Part shown: positions 1,713-61,982 of the stretch, piece by piece
Numbering within the stretch: position 1 is the stretch's first letter
How the letters are laid out: every line of letters begins with the position of its first letter
Assembly (NCBI GenBank): GCA_001002285.1
Contig: LCLX01000001.1
Coordinates: forward strand, 192,302-256,301
Length of the DNA: 64,000 nucleotides
Direction: 5' to 3'
Source of the DNA: Microgenomates group bacterium GW2011_GWC1_46_15
GTDB taxonomy: Bacteria; Patescibacteriota; Microgenomatia; UBA1400; UBA12028
Made by a program: the position numbers and the translations under genes
Notes under the pieces: generated by a model
What the model was told of the DNA's origin: nothing
Databases searched by the model: none
Seen by the model: only the letters and a program-made list of their open reading frames with translations

Positions 1713-4700
1713 ATGCCCTCGCAATCTCCTTTAAAGAAACCACAGGAAAAATCCAATGCCGTGTTTTCTTCTCTCTACTCCAAACTTAATCCTGAGCAAA
1801 AGAAGGCGGTTGACGCAGTTGAAGGGCCAGTCATGGTATTTGCGGGTCCCGGTACGGGGAAAACACAAGTGTTGGCGATGCGCGCGGCCAACATTCTCAG
1901 AAAAACAGATGTCGGTCCGCACAACATTCTCGCGCTCACCTTTACCGAGTCGGCTGCAAAGGCGATGCGGGATCGGCTTATCTCGATCATCGGTGAGGAT
2001 GCGTACTATGTGAACATCGCGACGTTTCACTCGTTCTGTTCTGATGTCATTCAGTCAAACCCCGAGTTTTTCCCATTTTCCCGTGACGCAGAGCCATTAA
2101 CCGACCTCGAGCGGTTTACGATCGTTGAAAACATTATCCGCGAGCAGGCATTTGAGGCAATCAAGCCCATCAACAGTCCCATATTTTATGTTCGCGACTG
2201 TATTAAAGCGATGCAGGACTTAAAACGGGAGAACGTTGAGCCAGATGATTTCCGCAAATTGATTGAGTATGATGTGCTTCAATTGAAGAAAGCGGAAAGT
2301 CTGCCAAAAACAGAGCAAAAGCAGCGGGAGAAAAACATTGCCAAACAGCGCGAACTTCTCCAAGTATATGTGTTATATCAGCAAAAACTCCGTGAGATGG
2401 GACGGTATGACTACGAAGACATGATTTCGTTCGCGGTCCACGCGTTTGAACAAGATGAAATACTCCTACGGAGTTATCAAGAGCGTCTGCAGTACATCTT
2501 GGTTGATGAGTACCAGGATACGAATGCGGCGCAAAATAAAGTATTAGAGTTGCTCGCCTCCTATTGGGGAAAACAGGCAAACGTGTTTGTCGTGGGCGAC
2601 AGCGATCAGAGCCTGTATCGTTTTCAAGGCGCCTCTTTGGAAAACAGTGTGGCATTTGTGAAAAAGTACCCAACCGCGTTGTTTATCACGTTGACGAAAA
2701 ACTACCGGTCTACGCAGACCATTTTGGATGCCGCCACAGAACTCATCGCAAAAAATAATTTTACGCATGCGACATTGTTGGAAAAATTTCAAAAAATCAG
2801 TGCAAAAAAATCTACAAGGACTTCGGTTCCGCTCTCCGCAACAGTGTCATATCCTGCTCAGCCGGTTTATGTAGCCGCGTTTTCATCTGATCTTGCTGAA
2901 ACGGCGTATATCGCTGAAGAAATCAGCACGCTCATCAAAAAAGGCACGAATCCAAGCGAAATTGCAGTGTTGTACCGCACGAATAACGATAGTGCGGCAA
3001 TTGAAGACGCGTTGGTAAAATGGGAAATTCCATATGAAATCGACAGCGGTGTAGATATTTTGGACTCGCCAGTGGTCATGCAGCTGCTCACGCTTTTTCG
3101 AGTGATTTACGATTTGCGCACCACACGAGAAGCGATTGATTTATTCACGGTGTTGAACTATGAATGGGTTGGTTTGGATGCGCTTGATCTTCTCAAACTC
3201 TCGCGCCACGCGGCAGAAAAGAAACAATCATTGTTTGACATTGTGCAGGGAAACGAAATCAAAGCACTTCAATTGAAGAAAGCGAAAGAAACCATCGCGT
3301 TTGTGCAAAAACTTATTCAGTGGTCGAAAGATGATGCGCAAAAAACATTCCCGCTTTGGTTTGAAACGGTGCTGAACGACAGCGGATTTCTCTCCTGGGT
3401 TTTGAAACGGAATGACGCTGCGGAAGCGATTAATAAAATCCAGTCATTGTTCCGTGAAGTAAAAATACAAACTTCAGTTGATAAAAGTACAAAGCTGGAA
3501 ACATTTTTACGCACAATTGAACGTATGCGGGAGCATCGCATTGCGGTGAACGAAGAGGTATTGCAGCTCCAAAGAAAAGCGGTCAAGCTTGCGACCGCGC
3601 ACAGCGCGAAAGGTCGGGAGTGGGAGTACGTGTTTATCATCCGCGCGATAGATGGCAAGTGGGGAAATACACGGTCTAAAGACCTTATTCCACTTCCCGA
3701 AGGTGTCTTGCGGTACACGAATATTGAAGAAAAAGAGAAAAATGAAGATGACCGGCGGGTGTTTTATGTTGCGCTCACCCGCGCCAAAAAACGCGTTACC
3801 GTAACGTATGCAAAAACATCGGTTTCCGGAAACAGAACAAAAGAAAACACCCAAACATTGTTTATTGAAGAAATTCCGGAGAAACTAAAAAAAGAAGTTG
3901 ACACGACGTCGTTTGAACAATCCGCCAACGCGGTTCTCGCGAAGCTTCTTCACGCTCCGGTCAATCAAACACAGACGATAGAGGAAAACGAGTGGCTTTC
4001 TGGACTGCTTGAGAACTTTGTGCTTACGCCGACAACGCTCAACACATATCTTGAGTGTGCGTACAAGTTCAAACTGAATACATTGGTGAAAGTTCCACGT
4101 GCGAAAGAGGATTACTTGGCGTTTGGAACGGCAATTCATAAAGCGTTGGAAATGTTGTTTCGGTCGTTTATCGAAAAAAATAAGATTCCATCAAAGGAGT
4201 TTGTGATTGGTGAGTTTGAGAAAAGCCTGCATAGAGAAATTATGACGCAGGATGAGGAAAAAGCGCGGTTGAATCAAGGCAGAAAAGTGTTGTCGGCATA
4301 CTACGACGAGTATACATCGCAGTTTGCCAAGCCGGTCTTTTTGGAAAAATTCTTGGGGTATGGATGGCCACGCATCTATCTCGACGATATCCGAATTGGT
4401 GGCCGCATAGATAAAATTGAGTGGGCGGACGATGCGCATAAAACCGTGACCGTTGTGGACTACAAAACTGGCCAGCCAAAAACACGTGGAGAGATTGAAG
4501 GAAAAACAAAAACATCCAATGGTGACTACAAACGCCAACTTCTGTTTTACAAATTATTAACAGATCTTGACCGCAGCTTTGGACATAAAGTTGAAAAAGG
4601 CATGTTTGATTTTATTGAGAAAGACAAGCAAACGGGAAAATTCAGGCGCGAAGAGTTTTTTTTGCCAAAAGAAGAAGTGGATGGATTACGGAAAATTATT

Positions 4701-4847
4701 AAAGATGTTATGGGGGAAGTCCGCGCGCTCTATTTCCCGCGGACAACACACTACAGCGTATGTAAAGAGTGTGAGTTTGCCCAGCACTGCTGGCCCGATG
4801 GCATTCCAGAGCAAAAAGCGGAACAAATGAAACTTATCTCTTCTTAA
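1713..4847 (+). CDS. UvrD/PcrA-family SF1 helicase fused to a C-terminal RecB/Cas4-like PD-(D/E)xK nuclease with Cys cluster (AddA-like helicase-nuclease)
   Basis: Walker A AGPGTGKT, VDEYQDTN, TKNYRST, VALTRAK helicase motifs. C-terminal GGRIDKIE...VVDYKTGQ (RecB nuclease motif III-like) and the cysteines of CKECEFAQHCW. Confidence 0.85.
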   Translation: MPSQSPLKKPQEKSNAVFSSLYSKLNPEQKKAVDAVEGPVMVFAGPGTGKTQVLAMRAANILRKTDVGPHNILALTFTESAAKAMRDRLISIIGEDAYYVNIATFHSFCSDVIQSNPEFFPFSRDAEPLTDLERFTIVENIIREQAFEAIKPINSPIFYVRDCIKAMQDLKRENVEPDDFRKLIEYDVLQLKKAESLPKTEQKQREKNIAKQRELLQVYVLYQQKLREMGRYDYEDMISFAVHAFEQDEILLRSYQERLQYILVDEYQDTNAAQNKVLELLASYWGKQANVFVVGDSDQSLYRFQGASLENSVAFVKKYPTALFITLTKNYRSTQTILDAATELIAKNNFTHATLLEKFQKISAKKSTRTSVPLSATVSYPAQPVYVAAFSSDLAETAYIAEEISTLIKKGTNPSEIAVLYRTNNDSAAIEDALVKWEIPYEIDSGVDILDSPVVMQLLTLFRVIYDLRTTREAIDLFTVLNYEWVGLDALDLLKLSRHAAEKKQSLFDIVQGNEIKALQLKKAKETIAFVQKLIQWSKDDAQKTFPLWFETVLNDSGFLSWVLKRNDAAEAINKIQSLFREVKIQTSVDKSTKLETFLRTIERMREHRIAVNEEVLQLQRKAVKLATAHSAKGREWEYVFIIRAIDGKWGNTRSKDLIPLPEGVLRYTNIEEKEKNEDDRRVFYVALTRAKKRVTVTYAKTSVSGNRTKENTQTLFIEEIPEKLKKEVDTTSFEQSANAVLAKLLHAPVNQTQTIEENEWLSGLLENFVLTPTTLNTYLECAYKFKLNTLVKVPRAKEDYLAFGTAIHKALEMLFRSFIEKNKIPSKEFVIGEFEKSLHREIMTQDEEKARLNQGRKVLSAYYDEYTSQFAKPVFLEKFLGYGWPRIYLDDIRIGGRIDKIEWADDAHKTVTVVDYKTGQPKTRGEIEGKTKTSNGDYKRQLLFYKLLTDLDRSFGHKVEKGMFDFIEKDKQTGKFRREEFFLPKEEVDGLRKIIKDVMGEVRALYFPRTTHYSVCKECEFAQHCWPDGIPEQKAEQMKLISS

Positions 4848-8531: not shown

Positions 8532-10502
8532 ATGAAATCTGACTCCGCCCACTCACTCCAAGATCTCCGGGAGCGTTCGCCCCTGCTCAAGCCGTTGAAT
8601 GATCAACAGCTTTCCGCGGTGCTTCATGGTGATGGCCCCGCAATGGTGCTGGCGGGTGCTGGGTCTGGAAAAACACGCGTGCTCACCACGCGCGTTGCAT
8701 ATCTCATGACAGAGAAAAATGTTTCACCGAACAGTATTTTATTGGTGACGTTTACCAACAAAGCTGCTGCCGAGATGACAAACCGTGTTCAGCAGATGAC
8801 CGGCAAGCGTCCGCAGTTTTCCGGAACGTTTCACCGGTTATGCGCGCGGATTCTCCGCCAGGACGGCATCCTCATCGGCATTCCGCCGACATTTTCCATT
8901 TATGACGATGACGATCAGCTTGATTTGGTGAAAAGTATCTTAAAAAAACTGAACCTTTCGGTTAAAGAGTTCAACCCGCGTCTCATGCTCAGCATGATTT
9001 CAAACGCAAAAAATGAGTTGCTTTCACCAAAAGACTATCAAATTTTTGCGAAAGGAAAAATTCAGGAGGCGGCGAACCGCGTGTATCAGCTCTATGAAAA
9101 AGAGTTGGATAAAAATGGCGCGGTGGATTTTGACAATTTGCTCAATAAAACGGTTGAACTTTTCCGTAAACATTCAAATATTTTGCAGAAGTATCAGCAT
9201 ATGTTTGAGTATGTGTTGGTTGATGAGTATCAAGATGTGAATAAAGCGCAGTACCTATTAACAAAAATGCTCGCGGCTCCACAGAACAATTTGTTCGCGG
9301 TGGGAGATTTTAGCCAAAGTATTTATGCCTGGCGTGGTGCGGATTACCGCAACATGCTCGCGCTCAAAACAGATTTTCCCGGCATTCAAGAATATCGATT
9401 AGAGCAAAACTATCGGTCAACGCAGACCATTTTGAATGCCGCCAGCGCGGTGATTTCACACAACACATCCCATCCTATTCTCGAGCTTTGGACAGAAAAG
9501 ACAGACAAAAGGCGCATTACGTTATATGAAGCAGAAACCGAAAAGGATGAAGCGGAGTTTGTCACGCATCACATTCAGCAGTTCAAGAAAACTTTACCGT
9601 ATTCCGAAATGGTGGTGCTGTACCGCACCAACGCACAAAGCCGTGTTTTTGAAGAACTTTTCCTCAAGTATGGAGTTCCATATAAACTTGTTGGTGGTGT
9701 GCGGTTTTACGCGCGCAAAGAAGTGAAAGATGTTCTCTCGCTTCTGCGCCTTTTTGTGAACGAGCATGACTCTGTTGCGCTTTCCCGCATCGAAAAGCTT
9801 GGGAAAAAGCGCCTGCAGGTATATCTTTCGTGGCTCGCGTCAACAAAAAAATTTCCCGAGAAAACACTCGATATTCTTGATGCGGTGCTTGAGGCATCTC
9901 AATATCTCACACTCTATGATGAACGCCTTGAAGAAGATGCGGAGCGGTTGGAAAACATTCAAGAGCTGCGGTCTGTGGCGAGCGAATTTTCTGATGTTCC
10001 CAGTTTGCTCGAAAACGTTGCGCTTGTCGAAAATAATACGTTGCCGGACTCAAGCTCTTCCAATCAGCAACAAGATGCCGTTTCACTCATGAGTATCCAC
10101 GCTGCAAAAGGACTCGAGTTTAGTGCGGTATTTCTGGTTGGCATGGAGGAGGGCCTATTTCCACATAGCCGGTCGCTCATGGACAAGCATCAGCTTGAAG
10201 AAGAACGCCGCCTTTGCTACGTTGCGATCACGCGCGCGAAAGAACATTTGTACATCAGTTACACACGCCGGCGCCTCTTGTACGGAGCGGTTACAGGGTC
10301 CATTGTTTCGCGGTTTATTGCCGAGATTCCAGACCACACACTTGAGAGAAAAGGGGGAGAACATCCAGTGGGATTACTCTCTGGTTCACAACATTTAACT
10401 CATCCTCAGCACATCTCCCGTCGCTTTTCTCAGTTAAGCGACGAAACGCTCGAACGCGTGCTCAAGGGTGAAATTGACGTAGAGTCATTTTTGGATATGT
10501 AG
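8532..10502 (+). CDS. pcrA: ATP-dependent DNA helicase PcrA/UvrD
   Basis: AGAGSGKTRVLTTR Walker A, VDEYQDVN, QNYRSTQ, VAITRAK; about 650 aa, typical of PcrA. Confidence 0.9.
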   Translation: MKSDSAHSLQDLRERSPLLKPLNDQQLSAVLHGDGPAMVLAGAGSGKTRVLTTRVAYLMTEKNVSPNSILLVTFTNKAAAEMTNRVQQMTGKRPQFSGTFHRLCARILRQDGILIGIPPTFSIYDDDDQLDLVKSILKKLNLSVKEFNPRLMLSMISNAKNELLSPKDYQIFAKGKIQEAANRVYQLYEKELDKNGAVDFDNLLNKTVELFRKHSNILQKYQHMFEYVLVDEYQDVNKAQYLLTKMLAAPQNNLFAVGDFSQSIYAWRGADYRNMLALKTDFPGIQEYRLEQNYRSTQTILNAASAVISHNTSHPILELWTEKTDKRRITLYEAETEKDEAEFVTHHIQQFKKTLPYSEMVVLYRTNAQSRVFEELFLKYGVPYKLVGGVRFYARKEVKDVLSLLRLFVNEHDSVALSRIEKLGKKRLQVYLSWLASTKKFPEKTLDILDAVLEASQYLTLYDERLEEDAERLENIQELRSVASEFSDVPSLLENVALVENNTLPDSSSSNQQQDAVSLMSIHAAKGLEFSAVFLVGMEEGLFPHSRSLMDKHQLEEERRLCYVAITRAKEHLYISYTRRRLLYGAVTGSIVSRFIAEIPDHTLERKGGEHPVGLLSGSQHLTHPQHISRRFSQLSDETLERVLKGEIDVESFLDM

Positions 10503-32496: not shown

Positions 32497-32570
32497 GGCC
32501 CCATCGTCTAGTGGCCTAGGACGTCAGGTTCTCATCCTGAAGATCCCCGGTTCGAATCCGGGTGGGGTCA
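32497..32570 (+). tRNA. tRNA-Glu: tRNA-Glu (anticodon CUC)
   Basis: GGCCCCA acceptor; D-arm TCGTCTAGTGGCCTAGGAC typical of tRNA-Glu; anticodon arm TCAGG-TTCTCAT-CCTGA; T-arm CCCGG-TTCGAAT-CCGGG. Preceded by a TGGTAAAAT extended -10. Confidence 0.8.
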
Positions 32571-47520: not shown

Positions 47521-47553
47521 CATAAAAAAACCTCCGGGTTAATTCGGAGGTTT
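47521..47553 (-). terminator. intrinsic terminator hairpin (AAACCUCCG...CGGAGGUUU + U7) within the minus-strand leader; candidate attenuator
   Basis: 9-bp perfect stem, 8-nt loop, then UUUUUUU on the minus strand. An upstream GGGGGGAGGUUUGG (rc of ~47587-47603) can alternatively pair with the 5' arm. Confidence 0.55.
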
Positions 47554-47655: not shown

Positions 47656-47691
47656 CTTGGGTATCATACAAACCAAAAAACTGCTTGTCAA
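47656..47691 (-). promoter_or_regulatory. consensus sigma70 promoter TTGACA-N17-TATGAT on the minus strand
   Basis: rc of 47686-47691 is TTGACA and rc of 47663-47668 is TATGAT, with a 17-bp spacer. The -35 overlaps the aspS -35 on the other strand. Confidence 0.6.
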
Positions 47692-47712
47692 CGTGTGATT
47701 TTCTGGTACACT
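47685..47712 (+). promoter_or_regulatory. aspS promoter TTGTCA-N16-TGGTACACT (extended -10)
   Basis: TTGTCA 47685-47690; TGGTACACT 47704-47712. The identical 12-mer TCTGGTACACTG recurs before rpoD. Confidence 0.6.
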
Positions 47713-47718
47713 GAAAAA

Positions 47719-47866
47719 AGAATATGTGGCGATGACCCTGCCGACACCAGGTGAGCCAAGCCGCCAGAGGCGGACGGGTAAGCCCGGTATAGCAGGAAAG
47801 AGAAACGACAAGGTGGCACCGTCTTCAGCACGAAGACCCTTTCGCACAAGGGCTCGTGCTTTTTTG
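47719..47866 (+). ncRNA. T-box riboswitch leader (Asp-specific) with terminator
   Basis: GCGAUGA K-turn-like start of Stem I. GAC-A specifier-like triplet. AAGGUGGCACCG at 47809-47821 matches the T-box consensus AGGGUGGNACCG, with N=C as expected for discriminator G73 of tRNA-Asp. Then hairpin AGCACGA...UCGUGCU + U6 (47827-47866) immediately before the aspS RBS. Confidence 0.6.
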
Positions 47867-47893
47867 TAGGCGAATACATACAATGGAGGAACT

Positions 47894-49306
47894 ATGGAGT
47901 ACGGAAACAGAGTATTAATCCAAGAGTCGCTTGTGCAGGTTGGCAAAACGATCACCCTCAAAGGGTGGGTTGCGACAAAGCGTGACCATGGGAAATTGAC
48001 CTTCATTGATTTGCGCGACCGGTCTGGTATTGTGCAGTGCATGGGGTACCAAAAAATGGGTGAACTGACCACGGAGTCGGTGATTGAAGTGACTGGTATT
48101 GTAAAGCAGCGGCCGGCAAACATGGTGAATACGCAGATTGAAACAGGAACGGTTGAAGTTGATGTACAAGAGTATCGCATTCTGAACACCGCAAAAGAAC
48201 TTCCCATCCAAGTTGAGGGTGACGGATATGAAATCAACGAAGAATCTCGGTTGAAGTACCGCTATTTGGATTTGCGGCGTTCCCGCTTGAACTCGATGCT
48301 AAAGTTACGCTCCAAATTTATCCGCGCGTTCCGTGAAGCCCTCTACACTGAGGACTTTGTTGAAGTTGAGACGCCGATGCTCACGAAATCAACCAAAGAA
48401 GGCGCGCGAGATTTCCTGATTCCATCCCGCTTTTATCCAGGAAAGTTCTATGCATTGCCCCAAAGTCCTCAGCAGTATAAACAGTTATTAATGACGGCGG
48501 GCGTTGAACGGTACTTCCAAATGGCGCGGTGTATCCGCGATGAAGACCTTCGGGCAGACCGTGGGTTTGAGTTTACGCAGTTGGACTTGGAGATGAGTTT
48601 TGTTGAACAACACGATGTGATGGCGTTGGTTGAACAGGTGGTGAAGTCTGCAGTAACCGCGGTAGGCGGAAAAATCAAACAAGACCCCTTTCCCGTTTTT
48701 GAGTATGCCGATGTGATGAAGAAGTTTGGCGCGGATAAGTTTGATGTGCGCACGGAAGAAGAAAAAAAGGCGGGAGTACTCGCCTTTGCGTGGGTGGTGA
48801 AGTTTCCGTTCTTTAAGAAAGTAGATAAAAAAGATGCTGCAGAAGTTCGTGATAGCAAGAGTGGGTGGACGTTCACGCATAATCCATTCAGCGCGCCAAT
48901 TCCGGAACACGAAGAGTGGCATGTGAAAGGCGAGCACACTGGCGAAATCATCACCGCGCAGTATGACTTGGTGTGTAATGGGTATGAAGCTGGTGGCGGA
49001 AGCATCCGCGCGCATAAGCCGGAAGTGTTACGTGCGACATTCCGCACGATGGGCTACTCGGATGCCGAGATTGAAGCGAGTGTTGGCCACATGCTCGAAG
49101 CGTTTGAGGTGGGAACGCCTCCGCACGGTGGGATTGCGCTTGGTATTGACCGCTTAGTCATGTTGTTGGCGGGCGAAAACAACTTGAAAGAAACAATTGC
49201 GTTCCCAATGACGTCAACCGGCCGCACCGCGGTGATGGACGCGCCAACAGAAGTGAGTAAAGAGCAGATGAAGGAGTTAGGGATGGAAGTCAAAGAGAAT
49301 AAATAG
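47894..49306 (+). CDS. aspS: aspartate--tRNA ligase (bacterial type, reduced insertion domain)
   Basis: FIDLRDRSG, QSPQQYKQLLM, RCIRDEDLRADRGFEFTQLDLEMSF (motif 2), HNPFSAP, GGGSIR, GIDRLVML (motif 3). Confidence 0.9.
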   Translation: MEYGNRVLIQESLVQVGKTITLKGWVATKRDHGKLTFIDLRDRSGIVQCMGYQKMGELTTESVIEVTGIVKQRPANMVNTQIETGTVEVDVQEYRILNTAKELPIQVEGDGYEINEESRLKYRYLDLRRSRLNSMLKLRSKFIRAFREALYTEDFVEVETPMLTKSTKEGARDFLIPSRFYPGKFYALPQSPQQYKQLLMTAGVERYFQMARCIRDEDLRADRGFEFTQLDLEMSFVEQHDVMALVEQVVKSAVTAVGGKIKQDPFPVFEYADVMKKFGADKFDVRTEEEKKAGVLAFAWVVKFPFFKKVDKKDAAEVRDSKSGWTFTHNPFSAPIPEHEEWHVKGEHTGEIITAQYDLVCNGYEAGGGSIRAHKPEVLRATFRTMGYSDAEIEASVGHMLEAFEVGTPPHGGIALGIDRLVMLLAGENNLKETIAFPMTSTGRTAVMDAPTEVSKEQMKELGMEVKENK

Positions 49307-51940: not shown

Positions 51941-52007
51941 ACAGCCATCATAGCAAATCATAGAGAGGTTGCGATATAATCGCACTAGAACAAATCTAGA
52001 GAAAATT

Positions 52008-53456
52008 ATGACAGCCACATCAAAAACCAAAACCGTCCGTACCCGCATCGCCCCTTCCCCGACGGGTCTTGCCCATGTTGCTACGGGATATATTGCGCTG
52101 TTTAACTACGCGTTTGCACATCAACATGGCGGCCAATTTATCATCCGCATCGAGGATACCGACCGCGCGCGGTTTGTTGAAGGTGCTGAACAGGTTATCT
52201 ATGACTCACTGAAGTGGTTGGGAATTCCACACGCTGAAGGGGTAGATATTGGTGGACCGTACGCGCCGTATAAGCAGTCCGAGCGGTTGGATATCTATAA
52301 AAAGTATGCCGAAGAGTTAATTAAAAAAGGTCACGCATACTACTGTTTTTGCACATCAGCGGAATTGGAAACGATGCGTAATGCCCAGCAAAAAGCGGGG
52401 AAACTCCCCATGTACGATGGCCGGTGCAAGCAGTTGGATCCCAAGGTTGCACAAGAGCGCGCGCAAAAAGAAAAGCATGTGATCCGCCTTCATATGCCAG
52501 ACGAAGGGAAAACCGAGTGGGAGGACTTAATCCGCGGACACATCGAGTTTGAGAACGCGCTTGTTGATGACCAAGTATTGATAAAGTCCGACGGCTTCCC
52601 CACATACCATCTCGCGGTGGTGGTTGATGACTACTTGATGAAGATTACCCATGTGATGCGTGGTGAGGAATGGATCAGTTCAACACCAAAACATATTGCG
52701 TTGTACACCATGTTTGGATGGGAGATTCCGCAGTTTGCGCACATGCCGTTACTGCGCAACCCAGACCACAGCAAGCTTTCCAAACGCAAGAACGATGTAT
52801 CGTTGATCAGTTATATGAAAAAGGGATACTTACCCGAAGCGCTTGTGAACTTTTTGTGTCTGTTGGGATGGTCGCACCCCGAACACGAAGAAGTATTTGA
52901 CCTGCAAAACTTTTTGAAACACTACGCGATTGACCGTATGCAAAAAACAGCTCCGGTCTTTGATTTTAATAAACTCAACTGGATGAATGGCCTATACATT
53001 CGGGAAAAGCTCAGCGCTGCGGAGTTAAAGAAGCGGTTGGAACCATTTTTGCCAAGTGATTTCCCCAAAAAGAAGTTTGACACGATTCTCCCACTTATCC
53101 GTGATCGTCTTGTTTTATTAGCGGATGTTGAATCATTAACAGATTTCTTTTACCGCGACATTGTCGTGGATAAAAAAGCACTTCAATTTAAAAAAGCAGA
53201 CGATGCCCTCATCGCGCAACAATTACTTTCATCAATTGAAGCGCTTAAAAAGACCGACTGGACACTTCAGTCAATTGAAGCGGTACTCCGCAGTCTTCAG
53301 GAAAAAAACGACTGGAATAAAGGTCAATACTTTATGTTACTCCGTATTGTGGTCACCGGAAAAACCGCAACCCCACCGCTTTTTGAAACAATAGAGGTGC
53401 TAGGGAAAGAAAAAACATTCCAAAGACTCGAGAAAGCCCGCTCACTTTTCGCCTAA
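52008..53456 (+). CDS. gltX: glutamate--tRNA ligase
   Basis: RIAPSPTGLAHVATGYIALFNYAFA (HIGH-region equivalent) and KLSKRK (KMSKS). Start at the ATG of MTATSKTKTV; the track start is an upstream TTG. Confidence 0.85.
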   Translation: MTATSKTKTVRTRIAPSPTGLAHVATGYIALFNYAFAHQHGGQFIIRIEDTDRARFVEGAEQVIYDSLKWLGIPHAEGVDIGGPYAPYKQSERLDIYKKYAEELIKKGHAYYCFCTSAELETMRNAQQKAGKLPMYDGRCKQLDPKVAQERAQKEKHVIRLHMPDEGKTEWEDLIRGHIEFENALVDDQVLIKSDGFPTYHLAVVVDDYLMKITHVMRGEEWISSTPKHIALYTMFGWEIPQFAHMPLLRNPDHSKLSKRKNDVSLISYMKKGYLPEALVNFLCLLGWSHPEHEEVFDLQNFLKHYAIDRMQKTAPVFDFNKLNWMNGLYIREKLSAAELKKRLEPFLPSDFPKKKFDTILPLIRDRLVLLADVESLTDFFYRDIVVDKKALQFKKADDALIAQQLLSSIEALKKTDWTLQSIEAVLRSLQEKNDWNKGQYFMLLRIVVTGKTATPPLFETIEVLGKEKTFQRLEKARSLFA

Positions 53457-61652: not shown

Positions 61653-61982
61653 TCCCCGGTAGCTCAGCCTGGTAGAGCGGGAAGCTGTAGCGTACTGCAG
61701 CCCTTTTTAGCGATGAAAAGGGAAACACAGGGTGAATTCAGGGAAGCCTTCGCTAGTGGTGAAAATCAATAGCATGGTAATCCTGAGCCAACTCCGATGA
61801 ATGGAATAAACGTAGTCGGAAGGGTGCAGAGACTAGGAGTGAGGATCCAACCAATACTCTCCAGAAGCGCCCTGCTCCAACATTATTTCGGTAGCGTTGG
61901 ATGAAGAGATAGTCCACACTTTATGGAAACATAAAGAGCATGTGTAACTTCAAGGTCCAAGGTTCAAATCCTTGCCGGGGAG
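61653..61982 (+). tRNA. tRNA-Asn: tRNA-Asn (anticodon GUU) interrupted by a group I intron
   Basis: Exon 1 61653-61688 (TCCCCGG acceptor, GCTC-AGCCTGGTA-GAGC D-arm, GGAAG, CUGU). Exon 2 61945-61982 (UAA, CTTCA, T-arm CAAGG-TTCAAAT-CCTTG, CCGGGGA, discriminator G). The spliced anticodon loop CUGUUAA equals the canonical tRNA-Asn loop. Confidence 0.75.
61689..61944 (+). ncRNA. group I self-splicing intron (~256 nt) in the tRNA-Asn anticodon loop
   Basis: P1: exon GCUGU pairs with the internal guide GCAGC (61697-61701), with U.G at the splice site. AAAGGGAAAC (P4-like). GGGUGCAGAGACUAGGAG (R element, P7 5' strand). GAAGAGAUAGUCCACAC (S element, P7 3' strand). The intron ends with G before exon 2. 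Closely resembles cyanobacterial tRNA-Leu intron core sequences. Confidence 0.75.

Follow-up and report, generated by a model that had tools for sequence, protein, structure and literature searches.

A very probable tRNA-Asp-sensing T-box of reduced architecture ahead of aspS in a Microgenomates bacterium

Introduction

The standard example of a tRNA being read by an mRNA is the T-box. Candidate Phyla Radiation (CPR) bacteria make few or no amino acids, and few of their regulators are known. Here we analysed a stretch of 64,000 nucleotides (nt) from contig LCLX01000001.1 of Microgenomates group bacterium GW2011_GWC1_46_15, called the window throughout, and found that the leader of its aspS gene, which encodes aspartyl-tRNA synthetase (AspRS), has the anatomy of a T-box in reduced form. 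On its 5' side this leader (47719-47893) is bordered by a bidirectional terminator (47528-47553), at which the upstream units end, and on its 3' side by an open reading frame of 470 amino acids (aa). We conclude that it is very probably a tRNA-Asp-sensing T-box riboswitch that governs transcription read-through. A sequence-only reading of the same DNA had already proposed a T-box whose specifier-like triplet is GAC (Asp) and whose T-box sequence carries UGGC; this proposal is now supported by the anatomy of the leader, by a covariance model and by the match between codon and gene.

Results

The elements of the aspS locus are, in order:

47685-47712, + strand: predicted sigma-70-like promoter, with -35 TTGTCA (47685-90), a 16-nt spacer and a TG-extended (TG-n) -10 TACACT (47707-12)
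47728-47757, + strand: ultrashort Stem I, a K-turn topped by the 4-bp helix CCUG/CAGG (47737-40/47748-51), with a terminal loop of 7 nt
47741-47747, + strand: specifier loop CCGACAC, with the Asp codon GAC (47743-45) at loop positions 3-5 and the conserved purine A47746 next to it
47761-47773, + strand: reduced Stem II, a plain 13-nt hairpin CCGCC-AGA-GGCGG
47775-47793, + strand: Stem IIA/B pseudoknot with F-box, CGGGUAAGCCCGGUAUAGC; IIA CGG/CCG (47775-77/47784-86), IIB loop GC (47782-83) with GC (47792-93)
47795-47809, + strand: purine-rich 15-nt linker GGAAAGAG-AAACGAC, occupying the place of Stem III
47810-47821, + strand: T-box core AAGGUGGCACCG, extended to AAGGUGGCACCGUC (47810-47823)
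47810-47841, + strand: antiterminator, with A1 AAGG/CCUU (47810-13/47838-41), bulge UGGCACC (47814-20), A2 GUCUUC/GAAGAC (47821-26/47832-37) and loop AGCAC
47827-47865, + strand: intrinsic terminator, with lower stem AGCACGA/UCGUGCU (47827-33/47854-60), upper stem CCCUU/AAGGG (47837-41/47848-52) and U6 (47860-65)
47885-89, + strand: Shine-Dalgarno (SD) sequence GGAGG, 20 nt past the U-tract, not sequestered
47894-49306, + strand: aspS, 470 aa, bacterial-type aspartate--tRNA ligase (NCBIfam NF001750, 584.6 bits)

The sensing domain of this leader measures 114 nt. At the base of Stem I, GGC-GAU-GA ... GA-GCC has the textbook layout of a canonical K-turn and is predicted to fold into one: a C-stem GGC/GCC (G47728-C47757, G47729-C47756, C47730-G47755; pairs checked against the sequence) is followed by a 3-nt bulge GAU (47731-33), by the sheared pairs G47734.A47754 and A47735.G47753, and then by C47736.U47752. 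The string GCGAUGA, which had been described as K-turn-like, is indeed present at 47729-47735 and falls inside this K-turn with its tandem sheared G.A pairs. A module of the same form (AGCG..GA-stem-7-nt loop-stem-GA-GCU) recurs in related leaders. The specifier-like GAC-A that the sequence-only reading had picked out was found at 47743-47746, and the fold presents GAC in the 7-nt terminal loop of a 4-bp hairpin. There Stem I ends: it stops at the specifier loop after 4 bp, with no long Stem I, AG bulge or distal loop. Neither an AGAGA nor a GGUGNRA motif occurs in 47719-47810, and the Stem I distal platform, the interdigitated T-loop motif (IDTM), is absent.

Downstream of Stem II, the equivalent of the F-box reads CCGGUA (47784-89). 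The linker contains GGAA(N)RAG, which is conserved family-wide in the alignment of the IIA-to-A1 module described below, and its GGAAAGAG part may correspond to the string of purines usually found beside Stem III. A further candidate pairing, between GCAGG (47792-96) and CCUGC (47737-41), was dropped after inspection by eye found that it is not kept in the relatives inspected.

The 3' part of the leader is a discriminator domain followed by a terminator. The T-box sequence, reported earlier as carrying UGGC, is AAGGUGGCACCG at 47810-47821; of the 13 positions that the consensus AGGGUGGNACCGCG (PMC11297988) specifies, it agrees at 10. The antiterminator that contains it (free energy, dG, -7.6 kcal/mol) has a 6-bp A2 and a 7-nt bulge beginning UGGC. 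The terminator (dG -16.0 kcal/mol, 7 + 5 bp) was missed by a simple scan because of its internal loop; it shares 15 nt with the antiterminator. These 15 nt, 47827-47841, belong to both folds, which are mutually exclusive, and the strong terminator whose 5' arm can alternatively form the antiterminator is therefore present as had been claimed. Because the terminator is the more stable fold (-16.0 versus -7.6 kcal/mol), termination would be the default state and the antiterminator would need outside help, which is the logic of a T-box. The position of the SD sequence outside both folds points to control at the level of transcription.

Is this organization conserved? A search of metagenomes with the pattern GGGTAAGCCC-N20-50-GGTGGCACC yielded further leaders, and the IIA-to-A1 module was aligned for 22 leaders, that of the window among them. 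In this alignment 91% of the cells were paired, against 14–51% when the 3' partners were slid by 1–3 columns; both partners had changed in 10 of the 16 pairs, and the observed values were not reached by any of 500 shuffles (0/500). Stem IIA was 100% paired, and the GC/GC of IIB was invariant, with a third pair (A-U, G-C or C-G) in 8 of the 22. This formal pair count covers the module without Stem I, because MAFFT, on full leaders as on the Stem I module, put sequences with a 6-bp stem out of register. We then rebuilt a covariance model of the Stem IIA/F-box-to-antiterminator module from the other 21 leaders, so that it was blind to the window, and ran it with filters off. The aspS leader scored 62.0 bits (E~1e-17) and the runner-up in the 64 kb 9.6 bits (E=0.16), and this search found no second T-box in the window. 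Outside the aligned module, a terminator that overlaps the 3' strand of A1 (hairpin and U-tract) was present in 18 of the 21 short-Stem-I relatives with a detected antiterminator.

The codon in the specifier loop matches the downstream gene across the relatives. Nothing but the IIA block and UGGC was fixed in the metagenome scan, yet the genes downstream of its matches cluster as AspRS (20), SerRS (11), TrpRS (5) and IleRS (2). In short-Stem-I leaders, terminal loops ahead of aspS read CUGACAC, UUGACAA and UUGACAG (GAC); those ahead of serS read UUAGCUA, UUAGCAC, UUAGCCC, CCUCCAA and CUUUCCA (AGC or UCC); those ahead of trpS read GUUGGGA and AGGUUGGA (UGG); and those ahead of ileS read CCAUCAC and UUAUCAC (AUC). 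The stems that close these loops differ in nearly every leader with pairing kept (CCUG/CAGG, GCUAU/AUAGC, GACAG/CUGUC, GGUUAG/CUAACC, GUGUGG/CCACAC and others). In a strict specifier test (7-nt loop, closing stem of at least 4 bp, triplet at positions 3-5), 6 of 12 non-redundant aspS leaders had an Asp triplet; none of the 14 leaders that precede other genes had one, and shuffled sequences had one in 4.7% of cases (0.047). A looser test, which accepted the cognate codon in any hairpin loop of 6–10 nt, was uninformative, being passed by 41–85% of shuffles, and was discarded.

The discriminator base was considered in the same way. When N was left free in a search upstream of 80 CPR aspS genes, all ten aspS-adjacent T-box cores (10/10) read UGGC. 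Among the metagenomic UGGC leaders, 47 pass a test for F-box and A1/A2 (classified genes: Asp 19, Ser 9, Trp 3, Ile 2), and 31 of the 33 that are gene-classified and structurally validated serve Asp, Ser or Trp. Bacterial tRNAs for these three amino acids carry G73 by established identity rules. Covariation of the discriminator (UGGC with G73), suggested by the sequence-only reading, thus receives indirect support and may hold. The F-box and A1/A2 test is also passed by two T-box-like UGGC leaders that lie upstream of non-synthetase genes, namely those of a NUDIX hydrolase (L108) and of a HAD-family hydrolase possibly related to phosphoserine phosphatase (L170).

The downstream gene had been named aspS, and its NF001750 match (584.6 bits) confirms the name, with the product of the bacterial type and without the GAD insert. 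Against the 590-position profile the match is split into two stretches, which indicates that the GAD insertion domain is absent from this AspRS. In two relatives (L169 and L181) a GAD-less AspRS reaches 611–616 aa through an extra C-terminal region. A promoter had likewise been announced ahead of the leader, and a consensus scan did find a promoter-like site at 47685-47712, TG-extended and with 9 of 12 consensus matches, a score that expresses the consensus match alone. The transcription start is predicted at about 47719, 9 nt 5' of Stem I. On the minus strand, a second promoter-like site (TTGACA-17-TATGAT, 47691 down to 47663, 11 of 12 matches) is directed away from aspS; the two divergent sites overlap (47663-47712), and the palindromic TTGTCAA/TTGACAA is common to the minus-strand site and the -35 of the aspS leader.

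The exact AspRS sequence has been deposited from 'Candidatus Pacebacteria bacterium' and from 'Microgenomates group bacterium GW2011_GWB1_45_17'. Pacebacteria and Microgenomates belong to the phylum Minisyncoccota (Patescibacteria/CPR), and the earlier hint of a CPR-like genome is correct by AspRS identity. Among the best 80 species-level relatives, every informatively labelled one is named as a CPR lineage. The element is widespread but patchy in CPR. Our model of the 3' module, R1, matched aspS loci outside its seed (L004, at 40.3 bits, L059, L023, L058, L016 and L011), and in L003 coding sequence extends up to aspS. Locus L032 (2740-3000 on the 1-Mb contig CAZFGX010000001.1; AspRS 72% identical) has a specifier hairpin GUUUG-CUGACAA-CAAGC and a terminator ahead of aspS, but its core, GCUGGCACA, is divergent and the Stem IIA/B block is absent; this leader may represent a T-box reduced still further.

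The relatives also differ in size and in Stem II. Measured from K-turn to A1, the leaders of L169 (Asp) and L140 (Trp) are smaller than that of the window, at 93 and 99 nt, and both are without Stem II. Where present, Stem II is a 5–7-bp hairpin or, in L159 and L142, a longer one with AGUAGA(A). A conserved 8–9-nt loop, GGUNNNAA, caps a 5–7-bp Stem II directly 5' of Stem IIA in L004, L006, L007, L033, L110, L121, L131, L151 and L160. The U...A spacing of GGUNNNAA fits the T-loop pentanucleotide; Stem II of the window has the loop AGA instead. This conserved loop may substitute for the S-turn. A role as an elbow-binding T-loop was rejected, since the elbow seems out of reach for a hairpin of 6 bp and the window leader does not have this loop.

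Discussion

What would be the mechanism of this leader? Transcription would begin near 47719, and the nascent RNA would fold the K-turn-based ultrashort Stem I, whose 7-nt loop would offer GAC; the small Stem II hairpin and then the Stem IIA/B pseudoknot would form next. The anticodon GUC of tRNA-Asp could then pair with GAC. With uncharged tRNA-Asp, the 3'-GCCA end would pair with the bulge UGGC and stabilise the weak A1/A2 antiterminator, which would keep 47827-47841 from the terminator and let RNA polymerase enter aspS. With tRNA charged or absent, the terminator and its U6 would form and transcription would stop at about 47865. Binding of tRNA, discrimination of its charge, and the points at which transcription really starts and terminates belong to this model, as does the presumed ability of the leader to manage without elbow platform, S-turn and Stem III.

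Several observations weigh against a tRNA-Asp-sensing T-box. (i) RF00230, the T-box family of Rfam, gave no match at its gathering threshold over the whole 64-kb window, and a search of 351 nt surrounding the leader stayed empty even at E<=10. (ii) The S-turn motif AGUA/GAA is absent from Stem II of the window, and no helix separates IIA/B from A1, so that Stem III is lacking; the missing IDTM, in turn, has been described as essential for transcriptional T-boxes (PMC7583486). (iii) The minimum free energy of the whole leader is not unusually low (z = -1.56). (iv) Model R1 found the 3' module upstream of aspS in only ~13 of 80 CPR loci, which is an undercount, as the divergent L032 leader was missed by the model. 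(v) No tRNA-Asp gene was found in the window, in ~200 related loci or in the ~20 kb of additional flanking sequence that longer contigs of this organism provide; from general knowledge and identity rules, we take tRNA-Asp in this genome to have anticodon GUC and G73. (vi) Two independent short-Stem-I T-boxes ahead of ileS (L142 and L190) have AUC in the specifier loop yet UGGC in the bulge, and bacterial tRNA-Ile normally has A73; either the discriminator of these tRNA-Ile is unusual or the N-73 pairing rule is relaxed. In the short-Stem-I group the N-73 rule is not perfect.

The silence of RF00230 on the window leader is explained by the architecture of the model, which is built on a long Stem I, and by its gathering threshold of 93 bits. 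As a positive control, RF00230 recognised the long-Stem-I aspS leaders L093 (100.8 bits) and L099 (97.2 bits) and missed all of the short-Stem-I leaders tested beside them (9/9); at gathering it also found nothing on 11 CPR loci. These long-Stem-I leaders precede a conventional GAD-containing aspS and have an AGAGA bulge, a GGUGAAA distal loop and a GAA-GAU-A specifier. They carry the blocks CGGGUAAGCCCG..AUAGC and GGUGGCACC, which are identical in the window, and in the RF00230 alignment CGGGUAAGCCCGAUAU falls in the Stem IIA/F-box columns and GGUGGCACCGCG in the T-box columns. The sequence-only reading had offered the RF00230 search as a check whose failure should count against the T-box. 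Taken literally the check went that way, but a model that misses short-Stem-I leaders is not a valid refuter.

Could the leader be a relic? It might be a decaying, non-functional T-box, with the hairpin and U6 left as a constitutive attenuator or with read-through regardless of tRNA. The three usual tRNA-binding modules (IDTM, S-turn, Stem III) are absent, the element is patchy among close relatives, and CPR genomes undergo reductive evolution, all of which would suit decay. However, the K-turn, the codon with its purine, the F-box, the 7-nt bulge, A1/A2 and the terminator overlap are all intact. The AspRS gene is generally essential, and a constitutive -16 kcal/mol terminator ahead of it would presumably be harmful. 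Moreover, the relatives repeat this reduced architecture with compensatory changes, and their codons switch in keeping with four different synthetase genes, which indicates purifying selection on function. We therefore consider a relic very improbable.

We think it very improbable that the T-box acts on translation, or at both levels, with an alternative fold that would hide the ribosome-binding site. Characterised ultrashort-Stem-I T-boxes are all translational (PMC7583486), and a few relatives, for example L169, have no clear U-tract terminator and an SD near the discriminator. In the window, however, the helix that competes with the antiterminator has the classic form of an intrinsic terminator (12 bp, -16 kcal/mol, U6), a hairpin with U-tract is also found in the 18 of 21 relatives mentioned above, and the SD (GGAGG, 47885-89) stands outside both folds, 20 nt 3' of the U-tract.

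Finally, a protein operator is hardly credible. In this reading AspRS would bind the anticodon-loop-like hairpin and regulate its own gene through tRNA mimicry, as in E. coli thrS, or some other protein would bind there and control the terminator. The specifier hairpin is indeed as large as an anticodon arm; its loop has 7 nt, most relatives have a pyrimidine at loop position 2, and the triplet is followed by a purine. But the loop holds the codon GAC and not the anticodon GUC, and likewise in the Ser, Trp and Ile relatives, which argues for tRNA pairing and against a synthetase-binding anticodon mimic, and the UGGN bulge, the F-box pseudoknot and the A1/A2 geometry are T-box-specific and common to RF00230 members.

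How does a tRNA-Asp-sensing T-box of this form compare with known T-boxes? With the class I leaders of RF00230 (B. subtilis tyrS; L093 and L099) it has in common a K-turn at the Stem I base, a codon followed by a purine, and a IIA/B pseudoknot with F-box CGGGUAAGCCCG. Also alike are the T-box sequence, the 7-nt UGGN-ACC bulge between A1 and A2, the mutually exclusive intrinsic terminator and the site ahead of an aminoacyl-tRNA synthetase gene that matches the specifier codon. Unlike class I, its Stem I consists only of a K-turn and a 4-bp helix, and the specifier lies in a terminal and not an internal loop. It also differs in having no AG bulge, distal loop (IDTM), Stem II S-turn or Stem III, in scoring below every Rfam threshold, and in its CPR host, class I being found in Firmicutes and similar phyla. 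The long Stem I platform of transcriptional T-boxes has been explained by the need for fast co-transcriptional capture of the tRNA (PMC7583486).

Ultrashort Stem I's have been found in translational, mostly actinobacterial T-boxes (PMC7583486; also PMC11297988). The comparison with this class II was made from review descriptions, and for the ileS T-boxes of Mycobacterium smegmatis, M. tuberculosis and Nocardia farcinica it extends to what PMC7583486 gives of Sherwood et al. 2015. According to that account, these T-boxes resemble the window leader in having no IDTM, in relying on the Stem II domain and IIA/B, and in sharing the same discriminator core; the N. farcinica F-box, as quoted there, is CCGUCA, identical to that of L033. 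They are described as translational through sequestration of the SD, with a Stem II of ~70 nt that includes an S-turn, with Stem III and with frequent A2 insertions. In contrast to the T-boxes so described, the window leader has an intrinsic terminator, a plain 13-nt Stem II hairpin and no Stem III, and is predicted to sense tRNA-Asp. Its Stem II is not elongated and does not carry the S-turn that reads the codon-anticodon minor groove in class II; instead of sequestration, it has its SD outside both alternative folds. The glyQS T-box of Bacillus and Geobacillus is another transcriptional switch with a reduced domain set. Its reduction is the opposite one: glyQS drops Stem II and IIA/B and retains a long Stem I with IDTM and Stem III, whereas the window leader keeps IIA/B and drops IDTM and Stem III. 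The window leader is outside both the RF00230 class and the translational actinobacterial class, and it joins the short Stem I of the latter to the terminator of the former, minus further modules.

Does the leader represent a subclass of its own? We give an even chance to an uncatalogued, Rfam-invisible subclass of minimal transcriptional T-boxes in CPR/Patescibacteria, with sensing domains of ~93–115 nt in which a K-turn carries the codon in a terminal loop that resembles an anticodon loop, the elbow platform, usually the S-turn, and Stem III have been lost, and the choice between antiterminator and terminator is made during transcription. TBDB is made up of RF00230 hits and of a class II model that was run on Actinobacteria only (PMC7778990), a composition by which such elements would not be collected there. 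If this holds up, RF00230 and TBDB systematically miss the short-Stem-I class, and the distribution of T-boxes is consequently under-reported. In the literature searched, no paper joins T-boxes or riboswitch surveys with CPR names, which is no proof of novelty.

If functional, a CPR subclass of this kind would contradict the current view, in which transcriptional T-boxes cannot do without the elbow contact, and its members would be the smallest natural T-box scaffolds. A 114-nt transcriptional T-box without platform, S-turn and Stem III would directly test the model in which a long Stem I is needed for speed of capture, and it could provide a compact scaffold for structural studies and for engineered tRNA-responsive switches. 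Some CPR bacteria would then adjust the levels of their synthetases to the charging state of single tRNAs (Asp, Ser, Trp, Ile), which would be one of the few regulatory mechanisms in CPR that can be read directly from genomes.

Other features of the window

The window contains a second synthetase gene, gltX (51969-53456, + strand; GluRS, TIGR00464, 509 bits), with a tRNA-Gln(CUG) gene directly 3' of it (to 53555). No T-box-like element was found ahead of gltX in the window, which makes the aspS leader gene-specific. A tRNA-Glu(CUC) gene (32497-32570) has A73. The tRNA-Asn(GUU) gene (61653-61982, + strand) is split by a 256-nt group I intron (61689-61944; RF00028, 89.7 bits), which probably lies between anticodon positions 35 and 36, as judged from the P1 U.G pair and the omega-G that mark the splice site. 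The spliced sequence is recognised by ARAGORN as tRNA-Asn with G73, and the unspliced gene was missed by both tRNA finders. The short-Stem-I T-box locus L140 also has a group I intron (937-1133). Near the start of the window, two genes for UvrD/PcrA-family helicases lie within 10 kb (1713-4847 and 8532-10502, + strand), and the product of the first (1044 aa) has a C-terminal PD-(D/E)XK nuclease domain (AddA-like).

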